Origin: Clostridia bacterium
GTDB lineage: Bacteria; Bacillota; Peptococcia; DRI-13; SM3-B62
Direction of reading: 5' to 3'
Assembly (NCBI GenBank): GCA_018432615.1
Contig: JAHDSQ010000031.1
Span: forward strand, 6,009-70,008
DNA length: 64,000 nucleotides
Shown here: piece by piece, positions 13,782 through 64,000 of the stretch
How the letters are laid out: each line of letters starts with the position of its first letter
Numbering within the stretch: position 1 is the first letter of the stretch
Notes under the pieces: model-generated
What the model saw: only the letters and a program-made list of their open reading frames with translations
What the model was told of the DNA's origin: nothing
Databases searched by the model: none
Translations under genes and position numbers: made by a program

Positions 13782-13800
13782 ACAGGCAGCCTACAGTATT

Positions 13801-32754: not shown

Positions 32755-33070
32755 GTAATGTGTCGGCGGGGCTCAATCTAGCCGGGCAATTGAGCAGTCT
32801 TACTATCAGCAATGGAACACTAACCCCGGTTTTTGATACAGATACCTCTAACTACGACGCAAATGTAGATAATTCAACCACCACTGTTGATTTAACTGCA
32901 ATTCTGGCCGACAATTCCGATGAGCTTTTCATTCAAGGACAGATGCAGGCCAGTGGGGTGGCGAAAACAATCTCTTCACTGGCTGTGGGGGTCAACACCA
33001 TCATAGTGGATGTGGCTACTCCGTCTAGTGGCCTTACCCGCACTTATACGGTGACGGTAAACCGCGCGCC
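30907..33070 (+). repeat. Intragenic tandem duplication of an RCC1-propeller + cadherin-like module (offset about 1029 nt)
   Basis: GCGGATGTAATTGCCGCCCGAGAGGCGGGCAAGAGAATATCGGG at 30907 recurs as GCGGATATAATCACCGCCCGAGAGGCGGGCAAGAAAATTTCTGCGGG at 31936. The junction AGCAATGG(C/A)ACACTAACCCCGGTTTTTGAT also recurs. Confidence 0.8.
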
Positions 33071-44046: not shown

Positions 44047-44304
44047 ATGAGTGAGATTAGCAGATTCAATAATGATGTCAGAGAAAACAAGGAAATGTTG
44101 GATGCGGTAAAAGAAATAGGCAACGACCTGGGAAAAGTGGTCGCCTATGCAAATTCCAAGGGGTACGCGATTAGTATTGAAGAGCTGGAGGCGCAAATCA
44201 AAGAGGAAGGGGAACTCTCCGAAGAGAATCTCGATAAAGTGGCGGGAGGACTATCTGCCGTTATAACCGGAGTAGCCGACATCACTATGGTATTAGTCCT
44301 CTAA
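44047..44304 (+). CDS. Nif11-like leader RiPP precursor 1 (68-aa leader ending VAGG, 17-aa core LSAVITGVADITMVLVL)
   Basis: The leader pattern MSEISRF..........L...KEIGNDL..VVAYANSKGY.ISIEEL......ELSEENLDKVAGG fits the Nif11-type leader (TIGR03798 as I recall). RBS AAGGAGAG 6 nt upstream. Confidence 0.85.
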   Translation: MSEISRFNNDVRENKEMLDAVKEIGNDLGKVVAYANSKGYAISIEELEAQIKEEGELSEENLDKVAGGLSAVITGVADITMVLVL

Positions 44305-44341
44305 TCACGGTGAGACGGTATCGTACAATCGAGAAAGGAGG

Positions 44342-44647
44342 ATGATGATGATGTCCGAGCTTGAAAGGTTCACTCAAGCACTTCAAGGTGATAAGGAGCT
44401 GGTGGAAGAACTGAAGTCTAGAGGAAACGATCTGGAAGAGATTGTCCGTTTCGCTAATTCCAAAGGATATAATTTTTCACTGCAGGAGTTGGTTACTGCA
44501 GCGGAAGAAAACGAAACCCTGTCCGAGGAGGAACTGGAGAGTGTAGCGGGTGGGTTTTTGACTTGCCTGGCCGGTGTTTCTTTTCAGATAGGAGATGGGA
44601 CCGGTCTTACGATTGCGGCCAAGGCCAAGGCTTTGGCGGTACTGTAA
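44342..44647 (+). CDS. Nif11-like leader RiPP precursor 2 (core FLTCLAGVSFQIGDGTGLTIAAKAKALAVL, 30 aa)
   Basis: The leader ...GNDLEEIVRFANSKGYNFSLQEL...LSEEELESVAGG is paralogous to precursor 1. There are four consecutive ATGs after GGAGG, and the true start is probably 44348 or 44351. Confidence 0.85.
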   Translation: MMMMSELERFTQALQGDKELVEELKSRGNDLEEIVRFANSKGYNFSLQELVTAAEENETLSEEELESVAGGFLTCLAGVSFQIGDGTGLTIAAKAKALAVL

Positions 44648-44679
44648 AAACTATAAAAGCGGGGAAAGGACAGCGAAAT

Positions 44680-44952
44680 ATGGTTATAAAAGAAATTAAG
44701 CGCTTTAATGAAGCTATACGTCACGACGAAGAACTTCAAAACCGGATCAAGGTCATTGGAGCGAATTTGGAAGAGATTGTCCGTTTCGCCAACCAAAAGG
44801 GATTCGATTTCACGGTAGATGATCTTAAAAAAGCACAAGACGGGGATATTGAGTTGTGCGATGAAGAATTAGAGTCTGTAGCGGGCGGAATCGTTGGTGC
44901 AATTGTGGCGCAGACGATAACAGTTGTCGGACTTGCTATAGTTTGCAATTAA
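44680..44952 (+). CDS. Nif11-like leader RiPP precursor 3 (core IVGAIVAQTITVVGLAIVCN, 20 aa)
   Basis: The ORF track starts at 44563 and overlaps precursor 2. The in-frame ATG at 44680 (MVIKEIKRFNEAI...) follows GGAAAGGA and aligns with the other two leaders. The leader ends CDEELESVAGG. Confidence 0.8.
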   Translation: MVIKEIKRFNEAIRHDEELQNRIKVIGANLEEIVRFANQKGFDFTVDDLKKAQDGDIELCDEELESVAGGIVGAIVAQTITVVGLAIVCN

Positions 44953-44973
44953 CAGGGTTACCGGGGGAGGTTA

Positions 44974-46407
44974 ATGGCGTTGAGCAGCTCACTGCTTTAT
45001 CAGGATTATATAAAAGGTACGAGCCCCGACGAATTAAAAATCATTGCCAATATCAAACGCTTTTTTGAGTGTATGACCGGTGATCCGGAGTTTCGTGCCG
45101 AGGTGGAAAGTAATATGTCCGGATGCGGACCGCTCTTGGAGTCAAGGGGCGTTTTTGGTGTAGACCCTACCCAGTTAATGGCGTTGTTTTCCAGGGGATC
45201 ATCGGAAGCCGAGCCTTCGGAGTCTGATTTGCAGGACAAGCCCCAGGGGCTGCTGTGGTACCGCTGGTGCAAGACGCATGAAGAATTGCGCCGGGCATGG
45301 AGAAAGCGCAGTGACGGTACACCCAATAAACGCTTTAATCAGTGGCACCGTCGCCAGGTGAACCGCTGCGGCAGTCAGCTGGGTAATTTAACAAACGAGC
45401 AATTAATCCATGCTACCGTTGTTTTTGAATTAACCCAGGGGTGTTCTCTCCAGTGCCCATTTTGCGGCCTGGCAGCCGAACCGCTAAAAAAGGTGTTTCC
45501 ATATACGAAGGAGAACGCCAGGCTGTGGCGGGAGGTGCTGGATGTGTCCGTTAAGCACCTGGGAGATACGGTAGGTACCGGAGTTTGCTACTGGGCGACT
45601 GATCCGACGGATAATCCGGATTATTTGAAGTTTGTGGCCGATTATGGTCAAAAGACGGGTTTTTACCCCCAGACCACAACCTCCGCACCCCTAAGAAAGC
45701 TTCAATGGACCCAGGACTTACTGGGATTCCGACGGCAACATAATACCTCTGTGGATCGCTTTTCAGTGCTTTCCCTTGATGGTCTGCGCCGTATTCATAA
45801 GACGTTTAGCGCGGAAGAGCTGTTATTTACCCAATTGGTTCTGCAGTATATTGATGTCATGAAAAAGGCCATGGCTCGTTCCGGGCGTAATCGACATAGT
45901 GAGGTTGAGCAAGAAGGGCTTGAGACTTTCAAGGATCATACTATCGCCTGTGTAACCGGTTACCTGATAAATATGGCCAAAGGCACGGTACGGCTAATCA
46001 GTCCGTGTCCTCCTTCGGAGATTGCGCCCCTAGGGTATCTCGTCCATACGGAAGGAAGATTCTCTAATGCCGGGGAGCTGGATGAGTTTATCGCCGAAAC
46101 CATGGAAAATTGTATGCCCGAGCATTGCGGGTCTGAAGATATCTTGTCCTTCCGTTGTGACTTGCAGTACGGGGTGTTGGCTAACGGCTTTCAGCTATCC
46201 AATGAATACAAGTCCCACAAGGTAGAGGGTAAACCCTATCTGATTAAGCTGGGAGGACTTATTTCAGGAGGGGATTTGACGTTTTCGCAAGTACTGGAGG
46301 AGATGTCAAAAGAGAGTGCCGATATCTTAGCGGTGATTACCACCATTCAGAAACTGTTTTCCCAAGGATTATTGGCTGACAAGACGGCTTGCGGCGGGAG
46401 GGTTTAG
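44974..46407 (+). CDS. Radical SAM RiPP maturase (Nif11-class; candidate PoyD-like epimerase)
   Basis: A single CxxxCxxC motif (GCSLQCPFCG; Cys codons at 45442, 45454 and 45463) follows a ~150-aa N-terminal extension. It starts 22 nt after precursor 3. The epimerase assignment is inference. Confidence 0.6.
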   Translation: MALSSSLLYQDYIKGTSPDELKIIANIKRFFECMTGDPEFRAEVESNMSGCGPLLESRGVFGVDPTQLMALFSRGSSEAEPSESDLQDKPQGLLWYRWCKTHEELRRAWRKRSDGTPNKRFNQWHRRQVNRCGSQLGNLTNEQLIHATVVFELTQGCSLQCPFCGLAAEPLKKVFPYTKENARLWREVLDVSVKHLGDTVGTGVCYWATDPTDNPDYLKFVADYGQKTGFYPQTTTSAPLRKLQWTQDLLGFRRQHNTSVDRFSVLSLDGLRRIHKTFSAEELLFTQLVLQYIDVMKKAMARSGRNRHSEVEQEGLETFKDHTIACVTGYLINMAKGTVRLISPCPPSEIAPLGYLVHTEGRFSNAGELDEFIAETMENCMPEHCGSEDILSFRCDLQYGVLANGFQLSNEYKSHKVEGKPYLIKLGGLISGGDLTFSQVLEEMSKESADILAVITTIQKLFSQGLLADKTACGGRV

Positions 46408-46410
46408 GTT

Positions 46411-48387
46411 ATGAGTTTAAATAACAAAACCGTTGCCCTGCCCTTTACGTCTGCGGAGGTGTGCCTGGTAAGTATGCCTTACCATAACCCGCATTTGCCG
46501 TCATTAGCCTTGGGCTTGCTACAGGCGGCCTTAATGGCAGAAGGAATCGAAACGAGAAGCGTTTACGCCAACCTCTTGTTTAACGAGCAGTTAGGACATC
46601 CTCTCTATAACCGGCATCACGTTCCTGATCCCAGGTTGCCTTTGGCAGAGTGGTCTTTTTCACCCCTTGCTTTTCCGGGGTTTGACGCCGATGAGGGAAG
46701 GTTTATCAAAGCGACTTATCCCTTGTTAGGCAGAATAAGACGGCAGACTATAGAAGCCTACCGTGAAGAACTTCGCTTTGTACGCCGCCAAGCGGAAGTA
46801 TTTATTAGTGATCTGGCGGAGAAAATCCTCAGTCTGTCGCCACGCATCGTGGGCTGTACATCAAGTCTGGCCCAGAAAGTGCCTTCCTTGGCCTTGTTGC
46901 GGAAAATCCGTGAGCTTGACCCAAAAGTAGTTACTTTAATGGGAGGTGCGGATTGTGAGACAGTGATGGGTCTTGCGGCTCATCAGCATTTCACCTGGCT
47001 TGACTATATCGTGTCAGGGGAAGGGGAAGATTTAATCGTTCCTTTGGTAAACAGTATCTTCGAGTTCAACCGAGAGGTTCCGCCTGACAGGCTGTCCAAA
47101 GGGGTATTTGCTCCTTGTCACAGGGATAGCGGATACCTTGAGATAAAAGAACAGGGAGAGGACAGCTATCGAGCGGTGGCGGAGTCCTTTGGGAGGCAAC
47201 GTCTCCCGCTCTATCAGGACTATTTTGACACATTGGCGCTACTGCCTACCCTGAGCGGTTTAATCCGGCCAAGCCTGCCTATCCAGGCCTCAAGAGGGTG
47301 CTGGTATGGAAAGTGCAAATTTTGCGGTTTGAATGCCCCGGAAATTCCCTACCGCTCACGCCCGTCTGAAGACGTACTTTCTGAAATGGATGAGCTTAAC
47401 GACCGACACGGTGTGACACATTTTGAGTTTCTGGATAACGTCCTTGCTAAGGGGCATATTGATGATTTATTGCCTAAACTTGCGGATAGGGGAGCCCCTT
47501 ATAAGTTGTTTTATGAAATCCGTTCGGATTTGTCGAAAAAGCAAATTGCATCCCTGCGGGCGGCGGGGGTCGTCATTTGCCAACCCGGGATAGAAAGCCT
47601 GCATAGCGAGGCTTTAAGAGCGATGAAAAAAGGGGTTACAAGCTGGCAGAATATCCAGACGTTGAAATGGTGCCGCCAGTATGGCATCAAGGCTAAATGG
47701 TCTATCATACACGATCTTCCGGGGGATCAGGACCACTGGTACCGGGAGATGGCGGAACTTGTTCCCCTGCTGGCTCATTTAAGCGAGCCCATGGGAATGC
47801 TGGAGGTTCAGTATCAACGCTACAGCCATTATTTTGACCACGCTGATGAGTATGGTCTAAAACTGGAACCCCTGTCATTGGACTCGCTGATTTATCCACT
47901 ATCTGAGGAAGTTATCAAGAATCTTTCCTATACACTGGACGACCGGTTCAGTGCCGGGGTTAGAGATAATCCCGGATTAGCTATATTATTTGCTCGTCCG
48001 GGACTGCGGAATTTGAAGAAGGCTGTTATCCGGTGGATGATGGGGGCTGATAATCGGAACGGGCCCATGTTGAGCATGAAAGTGGCTGACGACAAAATAG
48101 TCATCAGTGATTCCCGTTCTGTGGCTACAGCCTCTTCATTTCAGCTTGACGGAGCCGAAAGGGAGATATATCTTCTGTGTGATGAGGCCAGACCGGAGGA
48201 GCAGGTGAGACGGCTCCTGTTGGATAAGGGATATAACGAGCAGACTGTGGATACAGGTATCCACAGTCTGCTGGAAAAGAAAGTGATGCTTCGGGTTGAC
48301 CGACGCTTACTGGCCTTAGCCTTAGAGGAGCCTGTTTTGGAATATATCTCCCCGGATCAGAACCCTATGGGATGGGTGAGTATCTAG
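46411..48387 (+). CDS. B12-binding-domain radical SAM enzyme (RiPP maturation rSAM, TIGR03975-like; candidate C-methyltransferase)
   Basis: The N-terminus VCLVSMPYHNPHLPSLALGLLQAAL is typical of the cobalamin-binding-domain rSAM group found next to Nif11/NHLP precursors. The cluster motif is RGCWYGKCKFCG (Cx4Cx2C as read; Cys codons at 47299, 47314 and 47323). Confidence 0.7.
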   Translation: MSLNNKTVALPFTSAEVCLVSMPYHNPHLPSLALGLLQAALMAEGIETRSVYANLLFNEQLGHPLYNRHHVPDPRLPLAEWSFSPLAFPGFDADEGRFIKATYPLLGRIRRQTIEAYREELRFVRRQAEVFISDLAEKILSLSPRIVGCTSSLAQKVPSLALLRKIRELDPKVVTLMGGADCETVMGLAAHQHFTWLDYIVSGEGEDLIVPLVNSIFEFNREVPPDRLSKGVFAPCHRDSGYLEIKEQGEDSYRAVAESFGRQRLPLYQDYFDTLALLPTLSGLIRPSLPIQASRGCWYGKCKFCGLNAPEIPYRSRPSEDVLSEMDELNDRHGVTHFEFLDNVLAKGHIDDLLPKLADRGAPYKLFYEIRSDLSKKQIASLRAAGVVICQPGIESLHSEALRAMKKGVTSWQNIQTLKWCRQYGIKAKWSIIHDLPGDQDHWYREMAELVPLLAHLSEPMGMLEVQYQRYSHYFDHADEYGLKLEPLSLDSLIYPLSEEVIKNLSYTLDDRFSAGVRDNPGLAILFARPGLRNLKKAVIRWMMGADNRNGPMLSMKVADDKIVISDSRSVATASSFQLDGAEREIYLLCDEARPEEQVRRLLLDKGYNEQTVDTGIHSLLEKKVMLRVDRRLLALALEEPVLEYISPDQNPMGWVSI

Positions 48388-52656: not shown

Positions 52657-54000
52657 ATGACGGAAAACAAGATTTTCAGAAAAATATCCCTGGATCGGTT
52701 ATCTTCCCCCGAAGAATTGGACCAGCGCCTAACTGTCATTTCACCCACAGGCTGGGTAGCGTTGTTTGCGGTGGGTATCTTAATTTTTGCCACCTTGGTG
52801 TGGGGTGTTTTCGGGAGGATTTCCGATAAGGCAATGGGTAGCGGAATTATTATCTCCGGCGGGGGTATTACCGGTTTGGTTCACCATGCCACCGGTCAGA
52901 TTAGCGATGTCAGCGTCCGTGACGGCGATTATGTCGGCAAGGGTCAGGTGATGGCACGTCTGGAGCAGACCCAGCTTATCGCGGATATTAATAAAAACAG
53001 AGAAGACCTGGCTGCGGTAAAAGCCATTGATTTGGATAGTCTGGAATTGAATGACAGCACGCGCAATTTTAATGTGTATAGCAGGTTTGGGGAGATTTAC
53101 AAGGGTTATCTGACGGCCCAGGCCAATTTGAATACCCAGACAAAGTATTACGAGGCGGAAAAAGCCAAAGCCGAGAACGAACTGGAAAAGGCCGGAATGC
53201 AATACGAGGCTGCTTTGGATAAATACAACAATTATAAAATTTTGTATGAACATGGTGCTGTTTCCAAAGACGAACTGGATGAGGCAGAGCGGGAAATGCT
53301 TAACTCCGAATCTTCCTACAATACCGTGAAGTACCATTTGAATGAACTGCCGCTGGCCCAGCTTAAGGAGGCGGAAACAGCCTTTGAAGCTCAGCGACAG
53401 TTGCTGAAGGACAATATCATCGCTTCTGTGATAGATTTGGAAAACACCATTCAAAAACAGCAAAATGAACTCCTAAGTAATAATGAGATAATAGCCGAGG
53501 TTTCCGGACGGGTCTTGGAAATGCAGGTGCAAAAAGGTGATATTTATCAAGCAGGAGAGGTCGTTTGCACGATAGCGGAAGAAGGTGAGCAAATCGATAC
53601 CCTGGAGGCTGTTATTTATGTACCGGCGGAGAAGGGCAAAAGAATTAGGCCCGGGATGGAAGTAAATATATCCCCGACTACGGTGCAGAAGGAAGAAAGC
53701 GGCTTTATGCTGGGCAACGTGGTAGAGGTTTCCGAGTACCCGGCCAGTGTCCAGGGAATGATGCTGACACTGGGCAATGCGGACTTGGCCAGACAGTTGT
53801 CGGGGAACAGTTCTCCCATCGAGGTCAGGGTAAAATTGATCAGGGACAGCAATACAGTCAGCGGATATAAGTGGTCGACGCCTAAGGGGCCGTCGATTGT
53901 CATAGACGGCGGGACGTTCTGCGCCGGGGAAGTAAAGATTGAGAAAAAACGACCGATCAGTATGGTCATACCTTTTATCAAGAAGCTTTTGCCTATCTGA
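52657..54000 (+). CDS. HlyD-family NHLP/Nif11 bacteriocin-system secretion protein (TIGR03794-like)
   Basis: The N-terminus IFRKISLDRLSSPEELDQRLTVISPTGWVALFAV is the signature of this subfamily as I recall it. It also has a coiled-coil middle and a beta-barrel C-terminus. Confidence 0.8.
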   Translation: MTENKIFRKISLDRLSSPEELDQRLTVISPTGWVALFAVGILIFATLVWGVFGRISDKAMGSGIIISGGGITGLVHHATGQISDVSVRDGDYVGKGQVMARLEQTQLIADINKNREDLAAVKAIDLDSLELNDSTRNFNVYSRFGEIYKGYLTAQANLNTQTKYYEAEKAKAENELEKAGMQYEAALDKYNNYKILYEHGAVSKDELDEAEREMLNSESSYNTVKYHLNELPLAQLKEAETAFEAQRQLLKDNIIASVIDLENTIQKQQNELLSNNEIIAEVSGRVLEMQVQKGDIYQAGEVVCTIAEEGEQIDTLEAVIYVPAEKGKRIRPGMEVNISPTTVQKEESGFMLGNVVEVSEYPASVQGMMLTLGNADLARQLSGNSSPIEVRVKLIRDSNTVSGYKWSTPKGPSIVIDGGTFCAGEVKIEKKRPISMVIPFIKKLLPI

Positions 54001-54052
54001 TAGATGCTAAAAAACCCGAACCAATGTATTGTGCTTTCAAGATTCTGAGGTG

Positions 54053-56218
54053 ATGAGCTTGCAAAGAAAAGGAAAAATGAAAAGGGTTCCCTCCATTTTG
54101 CAGATGGAAGCTGTGGAATGCGGCGCGGCTTCACTGGCAATGATTTTTGCTTATTATAAAAAATATCTGCCTTTAGAGCAGTTGCGTGTGGACTGTGGGG
54201 TCACTCGCGATGGGGTTAAGGCCAACAGTATCTTAAAAGCTGCCCGGAGGTATGGGTTTGTTGCCAAGGGTTTCCGGAAGGAGCCCGAAGGTTTGAGAGA
54301 GATGCCTTTACCGGCTATCATCCATTGGAATTTTAATCACTTCGTGGTCTTGGAAGGATTCGGGAAAGACGGGGTTTACATTAATGATCCGGGCTCCGGA
54401 CCCAGGACTATTGATTACGAAGAGTTTGACATGGCCTTTACCGGCGTGATTCTGACCTTTGAACCGGGGGAAGAATTTCAGCCCAGCGGGACAAAGAATA
54501 GTTTTATCGTTTCCTTGCGGCAGTGGTTGTCCGGTTCCCATACCGCAGTTATTTATCTGGTTCTGATTGGTCTCATTATGGTTATTCCGGGCTTGCTGGT
54601 ACCGGCTTTCAGTAAAATTTTTATCGATGACATCCTACTCGGGGGCAAAGGTGATTGGTTGAAACCTCTGCTGTGGGCCATGGGAGCGGCGGCCATTTTA
54701 CAGGGGGTATTGGTTGCCCTTCAGCAGTATTACCTGCTGAAAATGGAGACCAAAACCGCCATCAGTAATGCCGGGAAATTCTTTTGGCACATCTTCCGTT
54801 TGCCGGTGGAATTTTTTCAGCAGCGTTCAGCCGGAGATGTTTCCAACCGCCTGCAGAGCAACGACCAGGTAGCCGCGTTTTTATCCCGGGAGTTAGCCGA
54901 AACGGCGATAGGTTTTTTGACCATAATATTCTACTTTGTAGTCATGTTGCAGTTCAGCGTTATTTTGGCCTTGATTGCCCTGCTGATTGCCGCTTTGAAT
55001 ATCTGCTACCTCTTTTATTCTTCCAGTAAAATAGAGACCTTAAATGCCAAGCTTTTGCAGGATCAGGGCAAGGTAATGGGTTTTTCCATGTCCGGCTTAT
55101 TTATAATGGAAACTTTGAAAGCTTCCGCCTCAGAGTCGGACTTTTTTGCCAAATGGTCGGGATACCACGCCAAAGAAATCAATTCTCAACAAAAATTGGG
55201 CAAAACAGCGCAGGTGTTGTTACAATTGCCTGATTTTCTGTCGGAGTTTGCTAATGTTATTGTCTTGTTTGTGGGAGGGTTGACGATTATCAGCGGGAAT
55301 CTGACCATCGGCTCCCTGATTGCTTTCCAGGGACTGTTGGGTAGCTTTATGCAGCCGGTTAACGACTTGACACAGATGGGTATGAGGGTGAAAGAAGTCC
55401 AGGGTGATATTAACCGTTTGGAAGACGTTTTCAAGTACAAGTTGGATGAAAATGTTATTCGAGAAACAGAGACTGAGCATGAAGAGGATACTTGTCGGAA
55501 ACTGGAAGGCGACATAGAAATAAAGGATTTGTCTTTTGGCTATAGTCCATGGGATCCGCCCCTGATTGAGAACTTTAGCCTGAGACTCAAATCAGGTTCC
55601 CGGGTGGCCCTGGTGGGCGGATCCGGCAGTGGCAAGAGCACCGTTGCCAAACTAATCAGTGGAATTTATCTTCCCTGGTCGGGGGAAATACTTTTTGATG
55701 GCAAACGCCGGGAGGATTTACCTCGCGAGGTGATAGTCAACTCGATGGCCGTTGTGGATCAGGATATCACCATGTTTGACGGAACCATCAGGGAAAACCT
55801 TACCATGTGGGATGCCACCATCTCGGAATTAGATTTGATCCGGGCAGCCAAAGACGCCTGTATTCATGATGACATTACCTTACGGGACAAGGGGTATGAC
55901 CATAAGGTCAGTGAGGGTGGCAGTAACTTCAGCGGCGGCCAGAGGCAAAGACTGGAGATTGCCCGGGCCCTAACCGGTAATCCCTCCGTTTTGATTCTGG
56001 ATGAAGCAACCAGCGCCCTTGATGTCCATACGGAGAAACTGGTTGATGAGAACATCCGCCGTCGGGGCTGTACCTGTATAATTGTGGCCCATCGCCTGAG
56101 CACTATCCGGGATTGTGATGAAATCATTGTTCTGGAAAAGGGTAAGATTGTGGAACGCGGCACCCATGATCAGTTGAAAAATACCGGGGGGCTATATGCC
56201 CAGCTAATCAGCGCTTAA
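54053..56218 (+). CDS. Bacteriocin export ABC transporter with an N-terminal C39 double-glycine peptidase domain (TIGR03796-like)
   Basis: C39 motifs QMEAVECGAASLAMI (Cys), HWNFNHFVVL (His) and YINDPGSG (Asp). Six TM segments, Walker A GGSGSGKST, signature FSGGQRQR and Walker B LILDEATS. The start is ambiguous (TTG 54029, ATG 54053, ATG 54077). Confidence 0.9.
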   Translation: MSLQRKGKMKRVPSILQMEAVECGAASLAMIFAYYKKYLPLEQLRVDCGVTRDGVKANSILKAARRYGFVAKGFRKEPEGLREMPLPAIIHWNFNHFVVLEGFGKDGVYINDPGSGPRTIDYEEFDMAFTGVILTFEPGEEFQPSGTKNSFIVSLRQWLSGSHTAVIYLVLIGLIMVIPGLLVPAFSKIFIDDILLGGKGDWLKPLLWAMGAAAILQGVLVALQQYYLLKMETKTAISNAGKFFWHIFRLPVEFFQQRSAGDVSNRLQSNDQVAAFLSRELAETAIGFLTIIFYFVVMLQFSVILALIALLIAALNICYLFYSSSKIETLNAKLLQDQGKVMGFSMSGLFIMETLKASASESDFFAKWSGYHAKEINSQQKLGKTAQVLLQLPDFLSEFANVIVLFVGGLTIISGNLTIGSLIAFQGLLGSFMQPVNDLTQMGMRVKEVQGDINRLEDVFKYKLDENVIRETETEHEEDTCRKLEGDIEIKDLSFGYSPWDPPLIENFSLRLKSGSRVALVGGSGSGKSTVAKLISGIYLPWSGEILFDGKRREDLPREVIVNSMAVVDQDITMFDGTIRENLTMWDATISELDLIRAAKDACIHDDITLRDKGYDHKVSEGGSNFSGGQRQRLEIARALTGNPSVLILDEATSALDVHTEKLVDENIRRRGCTCIIVAHRLSTIRDCDEIIVLEKGKIVERGTHDQLKNTGGLYAQLISA

Positions 56219-56251: not shown

Positions 56252-58933
56252 TTGGGTTTCATTGACCGTTTAGCATCTGTCACAATCAAAACAGAAGGAA
56301 ACAAACCATTGCTTTTAACCGACTCTAAAGTCTGGCTGGTTAAAGAAGGCAAGGTCGATTTGTTTATCACCCGGACAGTCAACGAGGAAAGCGTAGGCAG
56401 CAGAAACTATCTGCTCACAGTTGACAAGGGGGAGATTTTCTGCGGACTAAAACCCATAAAAGCAGAAGATGAAGATTACGCCCTTCTGGCCGTGGGTCGT
56501 ACCGATACCTCGCTTTTGGAATTTAACCGTCATGAATTCACCCGGACAAAAACAAAGCCGGAACGTGATGAGATGGTCGGCTTCTTCAAGGAATGGATTA
56601 AAAAGTGGCAGGACTTGGGGCTTAAGGAAAACGGGGAATTTGATTGGGACAAAGATTTCGAGCCGGAAAAGCTGATGGAATACAATAGCCTTCTTTTTGC
56701 CGAGGGGCTCACAAGAATGCTTGAGGCCAGAAAAGAAGAGGTTTTGAGGATAAAAGCAAAACGTGCCCAGGATGAAGCCCGCATGAGTAGCGGATTGAAA
56801 AGACTGGCCGATACCTTAAACATTGGGGTACAAGTAAGTCAGGAAGCAGAAGAATACCACAGCGATAATCTGCTCTTTAAGGCTTGTGTGGCTGTGGGAA
56901 AGGCCAAGAAAATAACTATTCTTCCTTCCCATGGTCTGCGAAAAAACAAGCCTGATTCAAAAGACCTCTTGGGGGATATAGCCAGGGCCTCCCAAATTCG
57001 AATCAGAAAGATCATTTTAAAGGAAAACTGGTGGAAAGAAGATAACGGAGCCCTCCTTGTTTACAGGGAGGCCGACAAGCAGCCTTTGGCCCTTTTACCC
57101 GTATCTCCTTCCAAATATAAATTATATGACCCGGCTGAAGGCAGCCAGGTTATGGTGGATCAGGCGGTGGCGGATACGATAGATGCCCAAGCCTATACCT
57201 TCTATCGCCCGTTGCCGGCTAAGGCCATTGGGTATAAGGACCTTCTCAAGTATTTGGCGGATGGGATTTGGAAGTCGGACGTGATTACCGTATTGGTGAT
57301 GGGCTCACTGGGGGGGTTGTTGGGAGCTTTGACACCGGTAGTAACAGGAATTATTTTCGACAGCGTAATTCCTGACGGGGAAAGACTGCTATTAAGTCAA
57401 ATCGGCTTTTTACTCATTGCTATCGCTATTTCCTCCTTTGCCTTTGATTTAACCAGGTCATTCGCCTTGCACAGGATAGAAGGACGAACGGAAAGCGACT
57501 TGCAAGCTGCGGTTTGGGATCGTCTCTTGAGCCTGCCGGTACCTTTTTTTAAAGACTACACAGCAGGGGAGTTGGCCGGTCGTGCTATGGGTATCAGTCA
57601 AATCCGAAGTATCCTGTCGGGTGCGGCAGTAAATTCCATTATCTCGGGAATCTTCGCGATATTTTATTTTATCCTCTTGTTTTATTATAGCTGGATATTG
57701 GCCTTGATTGCTACGGCTATCGTAGCCGTCAATATGGGGGTATCCCTCTTATTCGGCTATCTGCAAATACGCTATGAACGTCAGCTGATCGATCTGAATA
57801 ACAGCCTGGCAGGAAAGATATTCGGCCTCTTAACCGGTATCAATAAAATCAAAACATCCGGATCGGAAAAGCGGGCTTTTCATAACTGGGCCACGGACTT
57901 CGGTCAGGTTAGGGACGTTACATACCGTAAAGAGACCCTGGGCAACAGAATGGCCGTTTTTAATTCTACGATAAATATCATTGCTACCGGGATTATCTTT
58001 TTCGCCTTAATAAGGGTCAGCGGAATCAACTTAGGCGCCGGTAAGTTTATTGCCTTTAACGCGGCCTTTTCAAGCTATTTGGGTGCCGTACTGCAAATAT
58101 CAGGCGTGGTTCTCCAACTCAATATCGTTAAACCCTTATATGAAAGGGTCAAACCGATTTTGGTGACCTTGCCCGAATTTGACGTTGATAAGGCCGATCC
58201 CGGGGAACTCGAAGGTAGTATTGAAGTGAAGCATGTGAACTTCCGCTACTATCCGGAGGGGCCTTTGGTTCTGAATGATATTGTTTTGGAAATCAAAAAG
58301 GGAGATTATGTGGGCATCGTCGGGACTTCCGGCAGTGGGAAGTCTACTCTGTTCAGATTGTTGCTCGGCTTTGAAAAAGCGGAGTCAGGTCAGATTTTTT
58401 ATGACCAGCATGACTTGGAGAAAGTGGATATCCGTTCTATTCGTCGTCAGTTAGGGGTTGTGTTACAAAGCGGTCAGTTGATGCATGGCAGTATTTTCGA
58501 CAATATTGTTGCTGCAGGTATCGGTTTGACCATGGATGATGCCTGGGAAGCGGCACGGATGGCTGGGATGGAAGAAGATATCAAGGGTATGCCTATGGGC
58601 ATGCATACCATGGTCAGCACAGACGGAGGCACACTTTCCGGCGGACAGCGGCAACGGCTGCTTATTGCCCGGGCTATTATCTCCAAGCCGAAAATCATTT
58701 ATTTCGACGAGGCTACCAGTGCTTTGGACAACAGAACCCAAAAAATTGTCAGTGAAAGCCTGGGCGGTTTAGGTGCTACCAGAGTCGTTATTGCCCATCG
58801 TCTGAGCACGATTGCTAACTGCAATAGGATTATCGTTATGGATAAAGGGCGGATTGTAGAGCAAGGCAATTATCAGGAACTGCTTGAGCAAGGCGGCCTC
58901 TTTACCCAACTGGTGAAGAGACAGCTAGCCTAA
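56252..58933 (+). CDS. Second bacteriocin export ABC permease/ATPase with an N-terminal cyclic-nucleotide-binding-like domain (TIGR03797-like)
   Basis: The N-terminal beta-barrel-like region (VWLVKEGKVDLFITR...GEIFCGL) is followed by a ~200-aa linker and a 6-TM domain. Walker A GTSGSGKST, signature LSGGQRQR and Walker B IYFDEATS. Confidence 0.85.
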   Translation: MGFIDRLASVTIKTEGNKPLLLTDSKVWLVKEGKVDLFITRTVNEESVGSRNYLLTVDKGEIFCGLKPIKAEDEDYALLAVGRTDTSLLEFNRHEFTRTKTKPERDEMVGFFKEWIKKWQDLGLKENGEFDWDKDFEPEKLMEYNSLLFAEGLTRMLEARKEEVLRIKAKRAQDEARMSSGLKRLADTLNIGVQVSQEAEEYHSDNLLFKACVAVGKAKKITILPSHGLRKNKPDSKDLLGDIARASQIRIRKIILKENWWKEDNGALLVYREADKQPLALLPVSPSKYKLYDPAEGSQVMVDQAVADTIDAQAYTFYRPLPAKAIGYKDLLKYLADGIWKSDVITVLVMGSLGGLLGALTPVVTGIIFDSVIPDGERLLLSQIGFLLIAIAISSFAFDLTRSFALHRIEGRTESDLQAAVWDRLLSLPVPFFKDYTAGELAGRAMGISQIRSILSGAAVNSIISGIFAIFYFILLFYYSWILALIATAIVAVNMGVSLLFGYLQIRYERQLIDLNNSLAGKIFGLLTGINKIKTSGSEKRAFHNWATDFGQVRDVTYRKETLGNRMAVFNSTINIIATGIIFFALIRVSGINLGAGKFIAFNAAFSSYLGAVLQISGVVLQLNIVKPLYERVKPILVTLPEFDVDKADPGELEGSIEVKHVNFRYYPEGPLVLNDIVLEIKKGDYVGIVGTSGSGKSTLFRLLLGFEKAESGQIFYDQHDLEKVDIRSIRRQLGVVLQSGQLMHGSIFDNIVAAGIGLTMDDAWEAARMAGMEEDIKGMPMGMHTMVSTDGGTLSGGQRQRLLIARAIISKPKIIYFDEATSALDNRTQKIVSESLGGLGATRVVIAHRLSTIANCNRIIVMDKGRIVEQGNYQELLEQGGLFTQLVKRQLA

Positions 58934-58969: not shown

Positions 58970-59515
58970 TTGAATAAAATCGGCAGTCCTTTGGTTGTGG
59001 CGGAAGAATCCGACAGTATTTCCAAGCTGTATCGTGACTACTATCCAAAGCTGTATAAATATACCCTTTACCGGGTAGGCGATTCAGCCACGGCAGAAGA
59101 CTTGGTCAGTGAGGTGTTTACCAAAATGCTGGCCAAATATCACACATATAACCCGGAGCGGGGTAAGTTCAGCACATGGCTTTTTACCATAGCGAATAAT
59201 ACAATTATTAATTACCATAATAAAAATCGCCATTATACTTCCATTGAGCCAAAACAGGCAGATCATAGGAATCCGCCGGAGGATGCGGTTATGAAGAAAG
59301 AATTAAAACATATGCTGGTTCAGGCAGTCATGAAGCTGGATGGGCGCCAGCGAAGCATAATTGCCCTTAAATTCGGTGCTTGTGAGACCAACCGGGAGAT
59401 TGCCCGGATGCTGAATCTGACGGAAAGCAATGTGGGAACGATCCTCTATCGAGCATTACAGCAATTACGGGATATTTTAAAGGAACAAGGCGTAGTGTAT
59501 GATTCGGAAATATAA
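58970..59515 (+). CDS. ECF-type sigma-70 family sigma factor
   Basis: Region 2 (YRDYYPKLYKYTLYRVGDSATAEDLVSEVF...FSTWLFTIANNTIINYH) and region 4 (RQRSIIALKF..ETNREIARMLNLTESNVGTILYRALQQLR). TTG start 6 nt after GAGGTGAG, 36 nt after the ABC gene. Confidence 0.85.
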   Translation: MNKIGSPLVVAEESDSISKLYRDYYPKLYKYTLYRVGDSATAEDLVSEVFTKMLAKYHTYNPERGKFSTWLFTIANNTIINYHNKNRHYTSIEPKQADHRNPPEDAVMKKELKHMLVQAVMKLDGRQRSIIALKFGACETNREIARMLNLTESNVGTILYRALQQLRDILKEQGVVYDSEI

Positions 59516-59530: not shown

Positions 59531-59773
59531 ATGAAGGAAAAACCATCAAAACCGTTTCTGACGGCTGTGGATAAGATTGTATCCGGCAGGCGGCTGAAAC
59601 CGTCAGAATATGAGCAACACGACAAAGAAGATCAAGAACTGCTTTCTCTTGCGCAGGTGCTGGCGGAGGGGGTTTCAGCTGTGCAAAACGATGAATTGGC
59701 AGACGATGAGCTGGATATGGTGGCGGGGGGCGTAAACCCCAACGCATTACCCAACAAAAAAGATAAGCCTTAA
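59531..59773 (+). CDS. Small soluble protein in the anti-sigma position, carrying a double-glycine leader-type motif (..DDELDMVAGG / VNPNALPNKKDKP)
   Basis: It starts 6-15 nt after the sigma stop (GTG 59522 or ATG 59531 after GAGGTGAGG). There is no TM segment and no zinc-finger Cys/His. Residues just before GG match the (D/E)(D/E)xL(D/E)xVAGG ends of the six precursors in this locus. Confidence 0.55.
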   Translation: MKEKPSKPFLTAVDKIVSGRRLKPSEYEQHDKEDQELLSLAQVLAEGVSAVQNDELADDELDMVAGGVNPNALPNKKDKP

Positions 59774-59893: not shown

Positions 59894-60928
59894 GTGTCTG
59901 CTATTATGCCCGGATTAAAGTTATTAAAGGAAAATCATTTTACGCATACCGAGTCCTTATCCCGGGAGCAGATGCCTCTTGCGGACGAGCTTTTTGTGCA
60001 AGCCTGGGAAGATTATATCCGAAACATACCCGGTTTGGGCGTCTTGGGAGCCTTGCAGCAAGGACTGGTCCAGCTTTGTTTCCCAATCCGGGAGGGAATG
60101 AGTACCAATCAAGATTACCTGCAGGCAACCCGCCGGGGGGCCAATCCGACAGAATTTGAAAGTGCTGAGGGTATCAGACTTGAGAATTCGGAGGGGCTGA
60201 AGGTTTATTTATATCAGACTCCGGCAGGCCGAATTCCTGTCTTGGAAACTAAAAGCCGCCGGGATTTTGAATCCCTAATCCGGGCTATATGTTACAAAAA
60301 TGAACCGATTGCTATCCCCGCGTCCCTGGGAGCCTTTATGATCAAAGGATACAACAATTGGGACAGGGTAGCCCGGTATAAGCGAAAGTGCGGACAGTCC
60401 TTTGACTTTAATTATATGAAAGCCAACCGGGAGCTATATCAAGACACCTTCCTCATTTTGACCGATGCCGAATACAGCGGTGTAGCGGCAGAGATGTTGG
60501 GGATGGCGAAAGAGGAATGGCGCAGGCTGTCCTTAATAATCCGCAGGGAGCATGAAGCCACCCATTATTTTACCCAGCGCTTTCTTGGCTCCGCCAAGAA
60601 TCATCCTCTTGATGAGTTTATCGCTGATTATATGGGTATAGTAGCCGCCCTCGGCTACTATCGAGCAGACTGGTTTCTTTGTTTTATGGGACTGGAGGAA
60701 TACCCCGCTTTCCGAGCGGGAGGTCGGTTGACCAATTACCTGGAAAACAAAGAATTATCTCAGAGGGAATTTGACGAATTAAAGAGTTGTCTCAAAAGAG
60801 CGGCTGAAAACGTCGAAAGGCTTGGCACAGAGAACCCCGATATTTATTCTCCCCAAGGCAGGTATGAAATGCTGCTGCGTTTGTCCCAAAGTAATTTGTT
60901 AGCTTTGGCTGAAAACCTTTTTACATAA
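59894..60928 (+). CDS. Hypothetical protein with an HExxH motif (possible metallopeptidase)
   Basis: 344 aa, with REHEATHYF (HEATH) about 110 aa from the C-terminus and an acidic residue downstream (HPLDEFIADY). No signal peptide or TM segment. Family not recognised. Confidence 0.4.
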   Translation: MSAIMPGLKLLKENHFTHTESLSREQMPLADELFVQAWEDYIRNIPGLGVLGALQQGLVQLCFPIREGMSTNQDYLQATRRGANPTEFESAEGIRLENSEGLKVYLYQTPAGRIPVLETKSRRDFESLIRAICYKNEPIAIPASLGAFMIKGYNNWDRVARYKRKCGQSFDFNYMKANRELYQDTFLILTDAEYSGVAAEMLGMAKEEWRRLSLIIRREHEATHYFTQRFLGSAKNHPLDEFIADYMGIVAALGYYRADWFLCFMGLEEYPAFRAGGRLTNYLENKELSQREFDELKSCLKRAAENVERLGTENPDIYSPQGRYEMLLRLSQSNLLALAENLFT

Positions 60929-60984: not shown

Positions 60985-61020
60985 CGTGTGAAGTTTGAAA
61001 AGCATGTGAACCTATGAAAA
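60985..61020 (+). promoter_or_regulatory. TGTGA direct-repeat motif upstream of precursor 4
   Basis: CGTGTGAAGTTTGAAAAGCATGTGAACCTATGAAAA. The TTGAAA(A)GCATGT part also occurs at 43962..43975, upstream of precursor 1. Confidence 0.3.
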
Positions 61021-61037
61021 AGAAAGGATGGATCGAA

Positions 61038-61394
61038 GTGGCAACAAATTTTGAATTATTGCAGGCAAAACTGGAGGCAGACCCGGCTTTTGGGAAAAAA
61101 CTGATTGAACTGGAAACGGCAGAGGAAGCCCAAAGAATCTTAAAAGCAGAAGGAATGGAATTTACAGTGGAAGAGCTCAACTCTTTTGCTGAGGCGGTAA
61201 ACAAATACGGGGACAGCGAGGGCGAGCTTTCCGACGAAGCCCTGGAGGGCGTAGCCGGCGGTGTTGCTCTGGCCACCGTTGCGGCAGCGGCGACACTTTT
61301 CTCAATTGGCGATAGTATGACCGGCGGCCATGTCAGGAGAGCAGTTTCCAGCGGGGTCAGACGGGCGGCCAGGCGTATTTTCAGAGGTTGGTAA
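61038..61394 (+). CDS. Long Nif11-like leader RiPP precursor 4 (43-aa core VALATVAAAATLFSIGDSMTGGHVRRAVSSGVRRAARRIFRGW)
   Basis: Leader ATNFELLQAKLEADPAFGKKLIELETAEEAQRILKAEGMEFTVEEL...ELSDEALEGVAGG. The GTG at 61038 sits 6-8 nt after AAAGGATGG. The track start ATG 61014 lies inside a conserved upstream motif that reads GTG in the sister copy. Confidence 0.8.
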   Translation: MATNFELLQAKLEADPAFGKKLIELETAEEAQRILKAEGMEFTVEELNSFAEAVNKYGDSEGELSDEALEGVAGGVALATVAAAATLFSIGDSMTGGHVRRAVSSGVRRAARRIFRGW

Positions 61395-61413
61395 GCAGAG
61401 TAAAGTAAAAAAA

Positions 61414-61431
61414 CATGTGAATCTGTGAAAA
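61414..61431 (+). promoter_or_regulatory. TGTGA direct-repeat motif upstream of precursor 5
   Basis: CATGTGAATCTGTGAAAA. Confidence 0.3.
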
Positions 61432-61448
61432 AGAAAGGATGGATTGAA

Positions 61449-61805
61449 ATGGCGACAAGTTTTGAATTATTACAGGCGAAACTGGAGGCAGACCCGGCTT
61501 TTGGGAAAAAACTCGTTGAACTGGAAACGGCAGAGGAAGCCCAAAGCTTCTTAAAAGCAGAAGGCTTGGAATTCACGGTGGAAGAGCTTAAGTCTTTTGC
61601 TGAGGCGGTAAACAAATACGGGGACAGCGATGGCGAGCTTTCCGAAGAAGCCTTAGAAGGCGTAGCCGGCGGTGTTGCCCTTGCCACCGTTGCAGCGACG
61701 GCGACGATAGTGTCGGTTACTGATGATATGACCGGCGGTCATGTCAGAAGAACTGTTTCCAGTGGTGTCAGGCGGGCGGCCAGGCGCGTTTTCAGAGGGT
61801 GGTAA
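61449..61805 (+). CDS. Long Nif11-like leader RiPP precursor 5 (core VALATVAATATIVSVTDDMTGGHVRRTVSSGVRRAARRVFRGW)
   Basis: Tandem paralogue of precursor 4. The ATG at 61449 follows the same RBS; the track start is GTG 61425. Confidence 0.8.
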   Translation: MATSFELLQAKLEADPAFGKKLVELETAEEAQSFLKAEGLEFTVEELKSFAEAVNKYGDSDGELSEEALEGVAGGVALATVAATATIVSVTDDMTGGHVRRTVSSGVRRAARRVFRGW

Positions 61806-61823
61806 GGACTGGACAAGCGATAG

Positions 61824-61841
61824 ATGTGTGAAACTGTGAAT
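61824..61841 (+). promoter_or_regulatory. TGTGA direct-repeat motif upstream of precursor 6
   Basis: ATGTGTGAAACTGTGAAT. Confidence 0.3.
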
Positions 61842-61904
61842 ATTTGAATTTTCGCGGATTCAGTATGATTCGAATAGTGAAAAATGAGGGTTGGAGGGGA
61901 AAAT

Positions 61905-62279
61905 ATGGAAAACCAAATTTTATCGACCTTAGAGTTGAATGAATTAATCGGCAAGAAAGCGGCTGAAGACGAAGCATTTCGACTTGCTTTGTTAAGCGAT
62001 CCCAAAGCGGCTTTGGAAAAGGAATTGGGAGTGGTGATTCCGGAAGATATTAAAATAGAGGTGCATGTGGAAAGCATGAAGTCCCTGCATCTGATTATAC
62101 CGCCTGCCAATACCGACGAACTGACGGATGATGATCTGGAATCGGTCGCCGGCGGTGCCGCCTCTTTTAGGCCGGATGTAATAATGATGTATGCCGTGCG
62201 TCCGCCTTCTGATTTCAAAAAAGGTGGCGGAACCGGGAGTCCGGCCTGGCGAGTAGCATTAGAAAAATTCAGAAAATGA
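61905..62279 (+). CDS. NHLP (nitrile-hydratase-like) leader RiPP precursor 6 (40-aa Cys-free core AASFRPDVIMMYAVRPPSDFKKGGGTGSPAWRVALEKFRK)
   Basis: The leader LIGKKAAEDEAFRLALLSDPKAALEKELGVVIPEDIKIEVHVESMKSLHLIIPP....LTDDDLESVAGG fits the NHLP pattern (TIGR03793 as I recall). The ATG at 61905 follows GGAGGGG; the track start at 61884 is less likely. Confidence 0.85.
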   Translation: MENQILSTLELNELIGKKAAEDEAFRLALLSDPKAALEKELGVVIPEDIKIEVHVESMKSLHLIIPPANTDELTDDDLESVAGGAASFRPDVIMMYAVRPPSDFKKGGGTGSPAWRVALEKFRK

Positions 62280-63823
62280 TAATCCAACGACCGATAACAG
62301 CAGTTTGGGAGATTACCATGGGTTGCAACATGCGCTGCAAACACTGCGGCTCTGCCTGCCATGACGTTCTCCCGGGAGAGTTGACGACAACAGAAGCCCT
62401 GCGGTTATGCGATGATATTGGCAAGCTTGGGATGAAGTGGATTACTTTATCCGGCGGTGAGCCGACCACCCGGAAAGACTGGCCGGACATTGCCGGAAGG
62501 TTGAAGGAGCGGGGTGTGGCTACCACTATAATTACCAATGGATGGCTCTTTGACGAGGTAATTCTGGAACAGGCAATTCAGGCCGGAGTCGCTACCATAG
62601 GCTTCAGCCTGGACGGCCTTCAGGAAACACACGATTTCATGCGCCGGGAGGGTTCTTACCAAAAGATTATGAAGGCTATTGAACTGTGCCTTAGCAGAAA
62701 CATGCACGCTACCGCCATTACCACGGTCAATAAAAAGAACCTGGGCGAGCTGGACAGGATAAAACAAGAATTGGCGGACAGAGGGGTCAAGGAATGGCAG
62801 GTTCAGATGGGTTGTCCCATGGGCAATATGGCTGAACACGACGATTTAGTCTTAGAGCCTACTGATATGGATACGATTATTGATTTGGCTTATCGGTGTA
62901 TGCAGGAGTCTTCGCTTAAAATCAACCTGGGTGACTGTGTCGGCTACTATAGTCTGCAAGAAATACAGATGGCCAAATACAGCCGGGAAAGCATCTATTG
63001 CCCTCAGTGTACTGCCGGAAAATATACCTTCGGTATCCTGCATAACGGGGATATTGTGGGATGTACTTCCATCAGGGATCCTGAGTTTACGGAAGGTAAT
63101 ATCAGGAAAACTCCCCTGAAAGAGATCTGGGAGAATCCGGACAGTTTCAGATGGAGCCGCACCATGAAAAAAGAAGACCTGCAGGGTTTTTGCGGAGTAT
63201 GTCGTTTTGCCGATGATTGCCTGGGCGGGTGTCCGAATTCCAGGTTAACCATGGGAGGCAGCATTTACGCAGAAAATCGTTACTGTTCTTATTTTCAGGC
63301 CGTTCAGAAAAGAATTCGCATCTTTGAAGAAATACAGGATTTCGACGAACTGGCGGCAATGGGCCGAAGCTTTACGGAAAAAGGATACTGGCAGTTGGCT
63401 GAAACCGCATTAAGCGTGGCCCTGGGCAGGCAAGGTGCGGATAGCGATTCTGGGCTTTTGAGCCATTATGGGTATGTGAATTTCAGGCTAGGTAATTATC
63501 ATGTTGCCCTGGAAGCAAACGAGAAGCTGTTGCAAAGAAGCCCTACTGATGTATACGGACTTAAAGGAAAAGGATTGTGCTTACTACGTATGGGTAAGAC
63601 GGAAGAGGGAATCGAACTGCTGAAAAGGGCTATGGCTTTGACGGATGAAAGCTTTATGGATCCCTATTATGATTTGGCTATTGCCTTGTCGGAAATAGGT
63701 CGTGAGAAGGAAGCAATGGCAGTTCTTGAAGAAGGCCGTAAGAAGTCGGAGGGCTTTGTGGACCAAAGCGAGGATTTGTATCAGAAGTTGGCGGATAGTG
63801 CTAAAAAAGCTGTGGGGGTTTAG
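62276..63823 (+). CDS. Radical SAM / SPASM-domain peptide maturase with a C-terminal TPR domain
   Basis: GCNMRCKHCG (CxxxCxxC) at the N-terminus. SPASM-type Cys set CPQC...GCTS...GFCGVCRFADDCLGGCPNS. The last ~170 aa are TPR-like (YWQLAETALSVAL..., NYHVALEANEKLLQ..., GKTEEGIELLKRAMAL...). Its start ATG overlaps the precursor stop (ATGA at 62276..62279). Confidence 0.85.
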   Translation: MIIQRPITAVWEITMGCNMRCKHCGSACHDVLPGELTTTEALRLCDDIGKLGMKWITLSGGEPTTRKDWPDIAGRLKERGVATTIITNGWLFDEVILEQAIQAGVATIGFSLDGLQETHDFMRREGSYQKIMKAIELCLSRNMHATAITTVNKKNLGELDRIKQELADRGVKEWQVQMGCPMGNMAEHDDLVLEPTDMDTIIDLAYRCMQESSLKINLGDCVGYYSLQEIQMAKYSRESIYCPQCTAGKYTFGILHNGDIVGCTSIRDPEFTEGNIRKTPLKEIWENPDSFRWSRTMKKEDLQGFCGVCRFADDCLGGCPNSRLTMGGSIYAENRYCSYFQAVQKRIRIFEEIQDFDELAAMGRSFTEKGYWQLAETALSVALGRQGADSDSGLLSHYGYVNFRLGNYHVALEANEKLLQRSPTDVYGLKGKGLCLLRMGKTEEGIELLKRAMALTDESFMDPYYDLAIALSEIGREKEAMAVLEEGRKKSEGFVDQSEDLYQKLADSAKKAVGV

Positions 63824-63824
63824 C

Positions 63825-64000
63825 ATGAGCAAGGCAAAGGAAAGACAGCCGGGGTTTAAAGACCTGCAGGATATTTTTAAGGAAATATCCCAAAAGGCGG
63901 CGGTGGACGGAGCATATCGGGAATTATGCCTGAAAGACGCTCAGGCCGCTATCCGGGAAGTAGCGGGGCAGGAGATAGAAATTCTTGAAGGGATTGTTTT
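63825..64000 (+). CDS. Further small ORF, possibly another NHLP-like leader peptide (3' end cut by the window)
   Basis: The ATG is 1 nt after the rSAM stop. MSKAKERQPGFKDLQDIFKEISQKAAVDGAYRELCLKDAQAAIREVAGQEIEILEGIV resembles the ..A..D..FR..LL.DP.AAI.E..G.EIPEG.. part of NHLP leaders. Confidence 0.45.
   Translation, partial: MSKAKERQPGFKDLQDIFKEISQKAAVDGAYRELCLKDAQAAIREVAGQEIEILEGIV

Follow-up and report, generated by a model that had tools for sequence, protein, structure and literature searches.

Tandem Nif11-leader precursors with arginine-rich, tryptophan-terminated cores beside a putative peptide arginase cassette in a Clostridia bacterium

Described systems and the present locus

Precursor peptides with a Nif11-type leader (TIGR03798) and the NHLM export genes (TIGR03794, TIGR03796 and TIGR03797) reportedly go together, a link that is said to have been drawn by Haft et al. 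in 2010 and of which the prochlorosins are an example. In the PqqA/PqqE/PqqD and MftA/MftC/MftB systems, a radical S-adenosylmethionine (rSAM) enzyme with a SPASM domain acts near a C-terminal aromatic residue, together with a chaperone of ~90 aa. Peptide arginases, few of which have been characterised, act on NHLP and Nif11 precursors, OspR being promiscuous, and several of the precursor families associated with them have no known product (PMC12703449); in arginase-containing clusters, Arg accumulates at the core termini (PMC8784127). Here we describe two tandem Nif11-leader precursor genes, copies A and B, near the end of a 64,000-nt stretch of DNA from a Clostridia bacterium (contig JAHDSQ010000031.1, positions 6,009 to 70,008); the window is this whole stretch. 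By sequence, the two precursors appear to belong to a wide and uncharacterised class, called W-terminal here, that combines a Nif11 leader, a hydrophobic core rich in Ala, Val, Gly and Thr, and the end Arg-x(0-2)-Trp-COOH. The class seems to be genetically tied to a small NHLP-like protein, a PF12640 arginase and a PqqE-like rSAM/SPASM enzyme, and in this lineage also to a GNAT-fold acyltransferase. Our literature search found no description of such a class, although the founding 2020 Angewandte arginase paper lay outside that search.

The locus shares with Nif11/NHLM systems a leader of ~75 aa ending in a double glycine (GG), tandem precursors in which the leader is conserved and the core varies, and a trio of HlyD, C39 peptidase-ATP-binding cassette (ABC) and ABC export genes. 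It differs from those of the prochlorosin type in its Cys-poor, hydrophobic cores with Arg-x-Trp ends, in the presence of arginase, PqqE-like rSAM and GNAT genes, and in having no lanthionine synthetase, none being found among the called genes of loci L001, L004, L006 and L149 or the large open reading frames (ORFs) of the window. The landornamide (OspA/OspR) and selidamide pathways (kamptornamide and phaeornamide, with arginase plus GNAT) resemble it in the PF12640 arginase, which has the three motifs and full-length homology to OspR, in the use of NHLP or Nif11 precursors, in the concentration of Arg at a core terminus (PMC8784127) and in the GNAT-fold enzyme that adjoins the arginase. Unlike in those pathways, there is no LanM, the local GNAT protein is missed by PF00583, a PqqE-like rSAM/SPASM enzyme and an NHLP-like protein are present in addition, and Arg residues, up to seven per peptide, lie C-terminally before an invariant terminal Trp; the present system is also known from its genes alone.

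Class II/IIb GG bacteriocins are similar in the coupling of GG cleavage to ABC export, in their tandem small genes and in the union of a cationic amphipathic helix with a hydrophobic segment in which small residues abound. Their leaders, however, are of 15-30 aa where the Nif11 leader has 75, and here there are modifying enzymes in the cluster. Unlike the alpha and beta partners of class IIb, copies A and B are forms of a single peptide that are 81% identical, and relatives mostly have one copy. The likeness to the Pqq and Mft systems is a resemblance only: the second rSAM/SPASM enzyme of the locus (rSAM341) matches PqqE and MftC weakly, a protein of ~90 aa (pep91) is encoded alongside it, and the peptides have an invariant C-terminal aromatic residue, but pep91 is not PqqD-like by Pfam.

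The ORFs of the two precursors, as mechanically listed, occupy 61014-61394 and 61425-61805 of the + strand. Their real starts are likely to be GTG 61038 and ATG 61449, because the resulting length of 118 aa is that of the database proteins P0001 and P0002, the start position is that of the ATG in every orthologue, and a conserved ribosome-binding site, AAAGGATGG, precedes these starts and those of the orthologues by 7-9 nt. Copy A (61038..61394) then consists of a leader at 61038-61262, ending VAGG, and a core at 61263-61391, and copy B (61449..61805) of a leader at 61449-61673 and a core at 61674-61802. The original prediction, made from the letters of the window, had called the pair tandem Nif11-leader precursors, and this holds: TIGR03798, the Nif11 leader family, gives 38.6 and 37.4 bits for copies A and B (curated cut-off, 32.3), and PF07862 matches both at or above its gathering score. 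The canonical GG cleavage site, GELSDEALEGVAGG/V (61257..61262 in A and 61668-61673 in B, + strand), was identified by its sequence, hydrophobic positions and conservation; it has V, L and L at -4, -7 and -12, hydrophobic as required, and is invariant across 17 aligned sequences.

Each core starts with an Ala/Val-rich segment and continues into a 21-aa amphipathic tail that holds seven Arg and ends in FRGW, with Trp as the last residue (HVRRAVSSGVRRAARRIFRGW at 61329..61391 in A and HVRRTVSSGVRRAARRVFRGW at 61740-61802 in B, + strand); this tail is the proposed target of the peptide arginase. Modelled as a helix, it has a hydrophobic moment of 0.68 (0.84 for the best 18-mer), and the observed value is reached by 1.5-2% of shuffles, in keeping with the bipartite core and cationic amphipathic tail that had been predicted.

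The W-terminal class and its enzyme partners

The loci scanned were 80 genomic ones baited with DUF7005, the protein encoded just upstream of the precursors, and 56 metagenomic ones baited with the arginase, which served as an independent sample. A database search gave 11 close homologues besides the window's own two, plus two distant ones, and everything that an exhaustive search with the 43-aa core returned fell into one cluster at 50% identity. This makes the bipartite subfamily a narrow one, confined, judging from these sequences, to Peptococcaceae/Desulfotomaculaceae-like Bacillota. The cassette itself co-occurs, in ~50 loci, with Nif11 peptides whose hydrophobic cores end R-x(0-2)-W; the ends seen are TRGRW, VRSRW, GRRW, RRISDARW, FSRW, LRRW, RRWGW and IFRGW. 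Hydrophobic cores of 10-50 residues are found among the Nif11 peptides of these clusters, in arrays of up to eight, and the C-terminal Trp is invariant both in the homologues of the window peptides and in 56/56 distinct W-terminal cores.

The association extends to distant enzymes. Among the arginase-baited metagenomic loci are some with arginases only 40-42% identical to the local one, yet these loci have arrays of 2-8 W-terminal peptides with Nif11-type leaders and the ends TRGRW, FSRW, LRRW, RRWGW and IFRGW. There, pep91-like and rSAM341-like genes adjoin the arginase, while the GNAT gene is absent; the small protein of ~90 aa is always found alongside rSAM341. Counting de-duplicated loci that contain any GG peptide, Arg-bearing W-terminal cores were present in 16 and absent from 6 of those with the arginase, compared with 2 and 24 of those without (Fisher p 3.6e-6). 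For rSAM341 and W-terminal cores, the corresponding counts were 17 and 3 with the enzyme and 4 and 24 without (Fisher p 1.1e-6). Several of the mismatches are regular-expression misses or truncated contigs, e.g. L018, where the peptide ends ...FDTSRW, and L005.

The basic residues of the class are also distinctive. The last 10 residues of the 56 distinct W-terminal cores contain 111 Arg and 7 Lys, as against 11 Arg and 76 Lys in the small sigma-linked peptides (see below) and 17 Arg and 74 Lys in the other GG peptides of the same loci. From these compositions, a requirement for arginine itself would explain the bias, and positive charge alone would not.

The original prediction saw no modifying enzyme adjacent to the precursors, because the window ends inside the cassette. 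Directly downstream of them are an NHLP-leader precursor (61905..62279) and an rSAM/SPASM-TPR enzyme paired with it (62276..63823), both on the + strand and recognised by profile matches, which form a separate sub-cassette. Then comes pep91, a small NHLP-clan-like protein whose first 58 codons are the last 176 bases of the window (63825..64000, + strand). It opens a cassette of pep91, arginase, GNAT and rSAM genes that continues beyond the window end (2225-5231 of contig L149, whose bases 1-2400 are 100% identical to the 2400 bases of the window at 61601-64000). The gene order in L149 is pep91, PF12640 arginase, p241, rSAM341, a solute-binding protein and JetABCD.

The arginase (L149 2513-3427) aligns over its full length with the crystallised OspR (8BRP; E 2e-62), matches the FlmR/OhkR peptide arginase family (NF052474; E 3e-80), and carries all three catalytic motifs, EEHHEAW, DSHED and LDIDLDYFSC, that are named as peptide-arginase motifs in PMC12703449. 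We are confident in assigning p241 (244 aa; L149 3439-4173) as a GNAT-fold acyltransferase from its predicted fold (pLDDT 89.5; Foldseek probability 1.00; 588 hits at E<=0.001); a search of it with the PF00583 hidden Markov model gave no match. The best NCBIfam matches of rSAM341 (L149 4209-5231) are PqqE, NirJ2, AhbD and MftC, all far under their cut-offs. pep91 (~90 aa; L149 2225-2500) always lies just upstream of the arginase and has a conserved ...LPPF.K(S/T)WL end, which reads FIKESWLWSQKKE in this genome; it has neither a GG site nor a conserved Arg in its C-terminal half. Its database similarity is to the NHLP clan and leaders only, below threshold, and it may be a stand-alone leader-like protein or a chaperone or other accessory protein.

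What emerges is a coherent precursor class spread across distantly related anaerobes, with a signature of Nif11 leader, hydrophobic core, Arg as the only basic residue, terminal Trp and enzyme trio. This makes the class a good lead for genome mining. The window subfamily would be the most Arg-dense natural candidate substrate that we have seen here, and may offer a route to multi-site ornithine installation and to rSAM chemistry at the Trp end.

Processing and possible roles of the peptides

Across the loci, the W-terminal Nif11 peptides look to be the only consistent Arg-bearing partner of the arginase, since pep91 has no conserved Arg and the NHLP pair is missing from arginase loci. Two other pairings were considered. 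As a substrate of the arginase, pep91 was rejected for want of the conserved C-terminal-half Arg and of the GG site. The NHLP/rSAM-TPR pair is unlikely to modify the Nif11 peptides, as it is missing from L004, L088, L011 and L019, all of which have the arginase and some of which keep the Nif11 peptide.

Peptides A and B are probably precursors of modified natural products, because the class ends in Arg and Trp and nearly always adjoins an enzyme for the conversion of peptide Arg to ornithine. From the observed gene content, homologies and co-occurrence, we infer the chemistry and activity as follows, with a probability of roughly 0.55 for the pathway as a whole. While the leader is still attached, the arginase would hydrolyse some or all of the tail Arg residues to ornithine, after which the rSAM enzyme, the GNAT enzyme or both might act further on the Trp end or on the amines so formed. 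The C39 ABC exporter would then make one cut, after VAGG, and export a peptide of ~43 residues, hydrophobic at its head and polycationic in its tail, which would probably act on membranes.

Several points weigh against this pathway. The link between arginase and peptides comes from co-occurrence, which is no proof of substrate pairing, and the loci counted are not phylogenetically independent. Locus L012 has W-terminal peptides and no arginase, while L009 and L031 have the arginase and no detectable W-terminal peptide. The arginase scores 269.6 bits with NF052474, under the strict cut-off of 350 bits, and it could serve the NHLP core instead, which has 4 Arg in this genome. The biological activity proposed for the peptides is entirely inferred. 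No immunity gene was recognised, nor was a conserved small membrane-protein gene found beside the precursors in L001, L004, L006 and L149, although immunity proteins are hard to recognise.

A bolder extension of the arginase pathway can be advanced only tentatively. It would make the Nif11 peptides with the end Arg-x(0-2)-Trp-COOH a new class of ribosomally made peptides with post-translational modifications (RiPPs), served by a stand-alone NHLP-like leader binder, an arginase and a PqqE/MftC-like rSAM enzyme that modifies the Trp, e.g. by an Orn/Arg-Trp cross-link or by oxidative decarboxylation. The end of the peptides, enlarged in the window subfamily to a 7-Arg amphipathic helix, would then become a ribosomally made poly-ornithine tail, possibly N-acylated by the GNAT enzyme, on a membrane anchor.

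The preference for Arg over Lys (111:7) despite Lys-rich neighbouring peptides, the Trp that ends 56/56 cores, and the tight co-occurrence with arginase and rSAM341 even at 40% enzyme identity together make it doubtful that the two peptides are what the original prediction took them for, namely unmodified, class II-like GG bacteriocin variants. These would leave the cell as linear 43-mers cut after VAGG, and the cassette would serve pep91, which has no conserved Arg, or the NHLP peptide. Such a product would nevertheless suit the canonical GG leader with its dedicated C39 exporter and the cationic amphipathic tail. It would also suit the arginase-free L012 and the short contig L092, where P0013 follows directly after the transporter with only the NHLP gene next.

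We think it improbable that the peptides are signals or membrane regulators, and not antimicrobials, within a circuit of an extracytoplasmic function (ECF) sigma factor, a GG-leader peptide, orphan solute-binding proteins and a sensor fused to a major facilitator superfamily domain. With 25-50 hydrophobic residues and as many as 8 variants per array, the cores look more like membrane-active toxins than like signals. The ECF sigma factor and its 80-aa GG-leader peptide are indeed conserved in the cluster, even in the distant L102, but this short Lys-rich peptide is itself the better pheromone candidate. What would accord with a signalling role is the pair of orphan substrate-binding proteins that flank the cluster, one of them with TrpX as its best, sub-threshold match, and the failure to recognise an immunity gene.

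How many times the precursor is cut bears on all of these products. The internal Gly-Gly of MTGG (61323..61328 in A and 61734-61739 in B, + strand) had been put forward as a second GG site, where the exporter or another protease would split the core into a 21-aa cationic and a 22-aa hydrophobic piece. The motif divides the core exactly at the hydrophobic/cationic boundary, Met at -4 is tolerated at C39 sites, and (M/I)(T/S)GG, as MTGG or MSGG, is kept in 9 of the 11 close homologues. The expectation, set by the original prediction itself, that the internal GG be conserved in homologues fails, however, at P0011 and P0013, which have lost it and retain the cationic W-terminal tail. Its -4, -7 and -12 positions are M, G/T and T, not the V, L and L of the true VAGG site, so that hydrophobic residues are lacking at -7 and -12, and no acidic helix was seen upstream of it. 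Nor is an internal GG a positional feature of the wider W-terminal class, as GG dipeptides lie at scattered positions in 19/56 related Gly/Ala-rich cores. In alignment, MTGG takes the place of T-R-G-R in shorter relatives, which end in ...TRGRW, and one pair of orthologous cores is identical except that TRGRW in one is SGGKW in the other. On these comparisons the second cleavage site is probably not real, and release of the two pieces is very unlikely; MTGG may instead be an uncleaved remnant or variant of an ancestral T-R-G-R-W end.

Origin of the two copies and neighbouring genes

Copies A and B, exactly 411 nt apart, give a gap-free alignment with 85.4% identity across the unit, and are a true tandem duplication, not a chance resemblance. 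This confirms the repeat as first noticed, upstream motif and ribosome-binding site included. The leaders differ at 8 of 75 aa (start codon excluded) and the cores at 8 of 43, with 6 of the core differences in a 12-residue patch (AAATLFSIGDSM in A, ATATIVSVTDDM in B) and 2 in the 21-residue tail, which agrees with the near-identical leaders and tails and the mid-core differences already described. The upstream motif is the 15-nt RTGTGAAnCTnTGAA, present on the + strand in three copies with exact 411-nt spacing (61004..61018, 61415-61429 and 61826-61840), of which the third, at 61826, precedes the NHLP gene. Orthologous loci lack the motif, which is specific to this genome. We conclude that it delimits the duplicated 411-nt unit and is no conserved regulatory element. 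For the same reason we rejected TGTGAA as a conserved promoter or operator, and scans for promoters and terminators gave background levels only. The triplet and its spacing are consistent with unequal crossing-over mediated by short repeats as the origin of the duplication.

Diversifying selection had been suggested for the variable patch. The pairwise ratio of nonsynonymous to synonymous substitution rates between A and B is below 1 everywhere, at 0.20 in the leader, 0.26 in the hydrophobic segment, 0.32 in the patch and 0.07 in the tail. This indicates relaxed constraint on the patch and lends diversifying selection no support; the tail is under strong purifying selection, with synonymous changes at its Arg codons.

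The leaders and cores have had different histories. The cores of A and P0008 share 90% identity but their leaders only 68%; between A and B, it is 81% for the cores and 89% for the leaders, and the core shows more synonymous divergence (0.72) than the leader (0.26). Judging from the sequences, at least three core types have apparently persisted over long times, LFSIGD (type 1), ASVTDD (type 2) and the GG-less SINxEI (type 3), and the leaders appear to be homogenised within each locus. The window combines types 1 and 2, and L004 types 2 and 3; L001, L006, L088 and L090 have one type each. Single copies are found at L001, L006, L007, L008, L088 and L090, and most relatives are single-copy. The mixed combinations among loci count against an obligate two-peptide system. 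Such a system had been predicted, but with mostly single-copy relatives and cores 81% identical, A and B are not the dissimilar, complementary peptides that it would involve. The window copies may instead represent two long-lived core types and have arisen by unequal crossing-over, with their leaders later homogenised within the locus.

Upstream of the precursors, all on the + strand, lies the NHLM export trio, and each member scores above its cut-off: an HlyD-type adaptor of the NHLP/Nif11 system (52657..54000; TIGR03794, 354 bits), a C39 peptidase-ABC exporter (54029..56218; TIGR03796, 1088.9 bits; C39 domain in the region of 54029-54500), which presumably cleaves the leader at VAGG and exports the core, and a second ABC permease/ATPase subunit (56252..58933; TIGR03797, 921.3 bits). 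An ECF-type sigma factor follows (58970..59515; profile matches) and then, identified as an ORF and by conservation, an 80-aa sigma-linked peptide (59531..59773) with its own GG leader and a Lys-rich core of 13 aa. Every Bacillota locus, and the distant L102 as well, conserves this peptide directly 3′ of the ECF sigma gene, with a perfect GG leader, ELADDELDMVAGG, before a Lys-rich core of 13-17 aa (VNPNALPNKKDKP). It could be a pheromone precursor, or an anti-sigma factor whose removal depends on cleavage and C39 export.

The DUF7005 protein (59894..60928, + strand) is found in ~470 species genomes with an invariant HExxH...E, which suggests a metallopeptidase. It follows the trio of HlyD, peptidase-containing ABC transporter (PCAT) and ABC2 genes in Nostoc, Acidobacteriota, Chthoniobacter and others without such peptides. 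Its AlphaFold model (pLDDT 93) has no significant neighbour in the PDB. We rejected it as a dedicated tailoring enzyme or protease, as it tracks the trio in phyla that lack the peptides and is absent beside the precursor at the P0013 locus; it looks like an unrecognised fourth component, or accessory, of NHLP/Nif11 HlyD-PCAT-ABC exporters across phyla.

In the downstream sub-cassette, the NHLP cores of different loci have the motif (A/V)YGVP...G-W-x-W-P in common; this points to a Trp-modified product of a separate kind. After rSAM341, ~3.2 kb beyond the window end, there is an orphan, lipoprotein-like ABC substrate-binding protein (L149 5228-6376). Its best NCBIfam match, below threshold, is the tryptophan-binding TrpX, and the peptides of this locus end in Trp. 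A complete JetABCD (Wadjet) anti-plasmid defence operon (L149 6676-13061) comes directly after the RiPP island.

Elsewhere in the window is a second RiPP cassette (44047-48387). Its three Nif11-leader precursors have short cores of high hydrophobicity; after them come genes for a PoyD-type rSAM epimerase (TIGR04517, 445 bits) and for a B12-rSAM C-methyltransferase (TIGR03975, 563 bits), matches that point to chemistry of the proteusin kind on peptides with Nif11 leaders. A MalT/LuxR regulator is at 41085-43556. At 1846-4752 there is a 968-aa protein in which an AEP-TOTE primase domain (PF22548, E 9e-102) is combined with helicase and PLD nuclease domains, a composition that indicates a TOTE conflict system. 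Surface proteins with S-layer, PKD and fn3 domains are encoded at 9374-20917 and 30751-34520.

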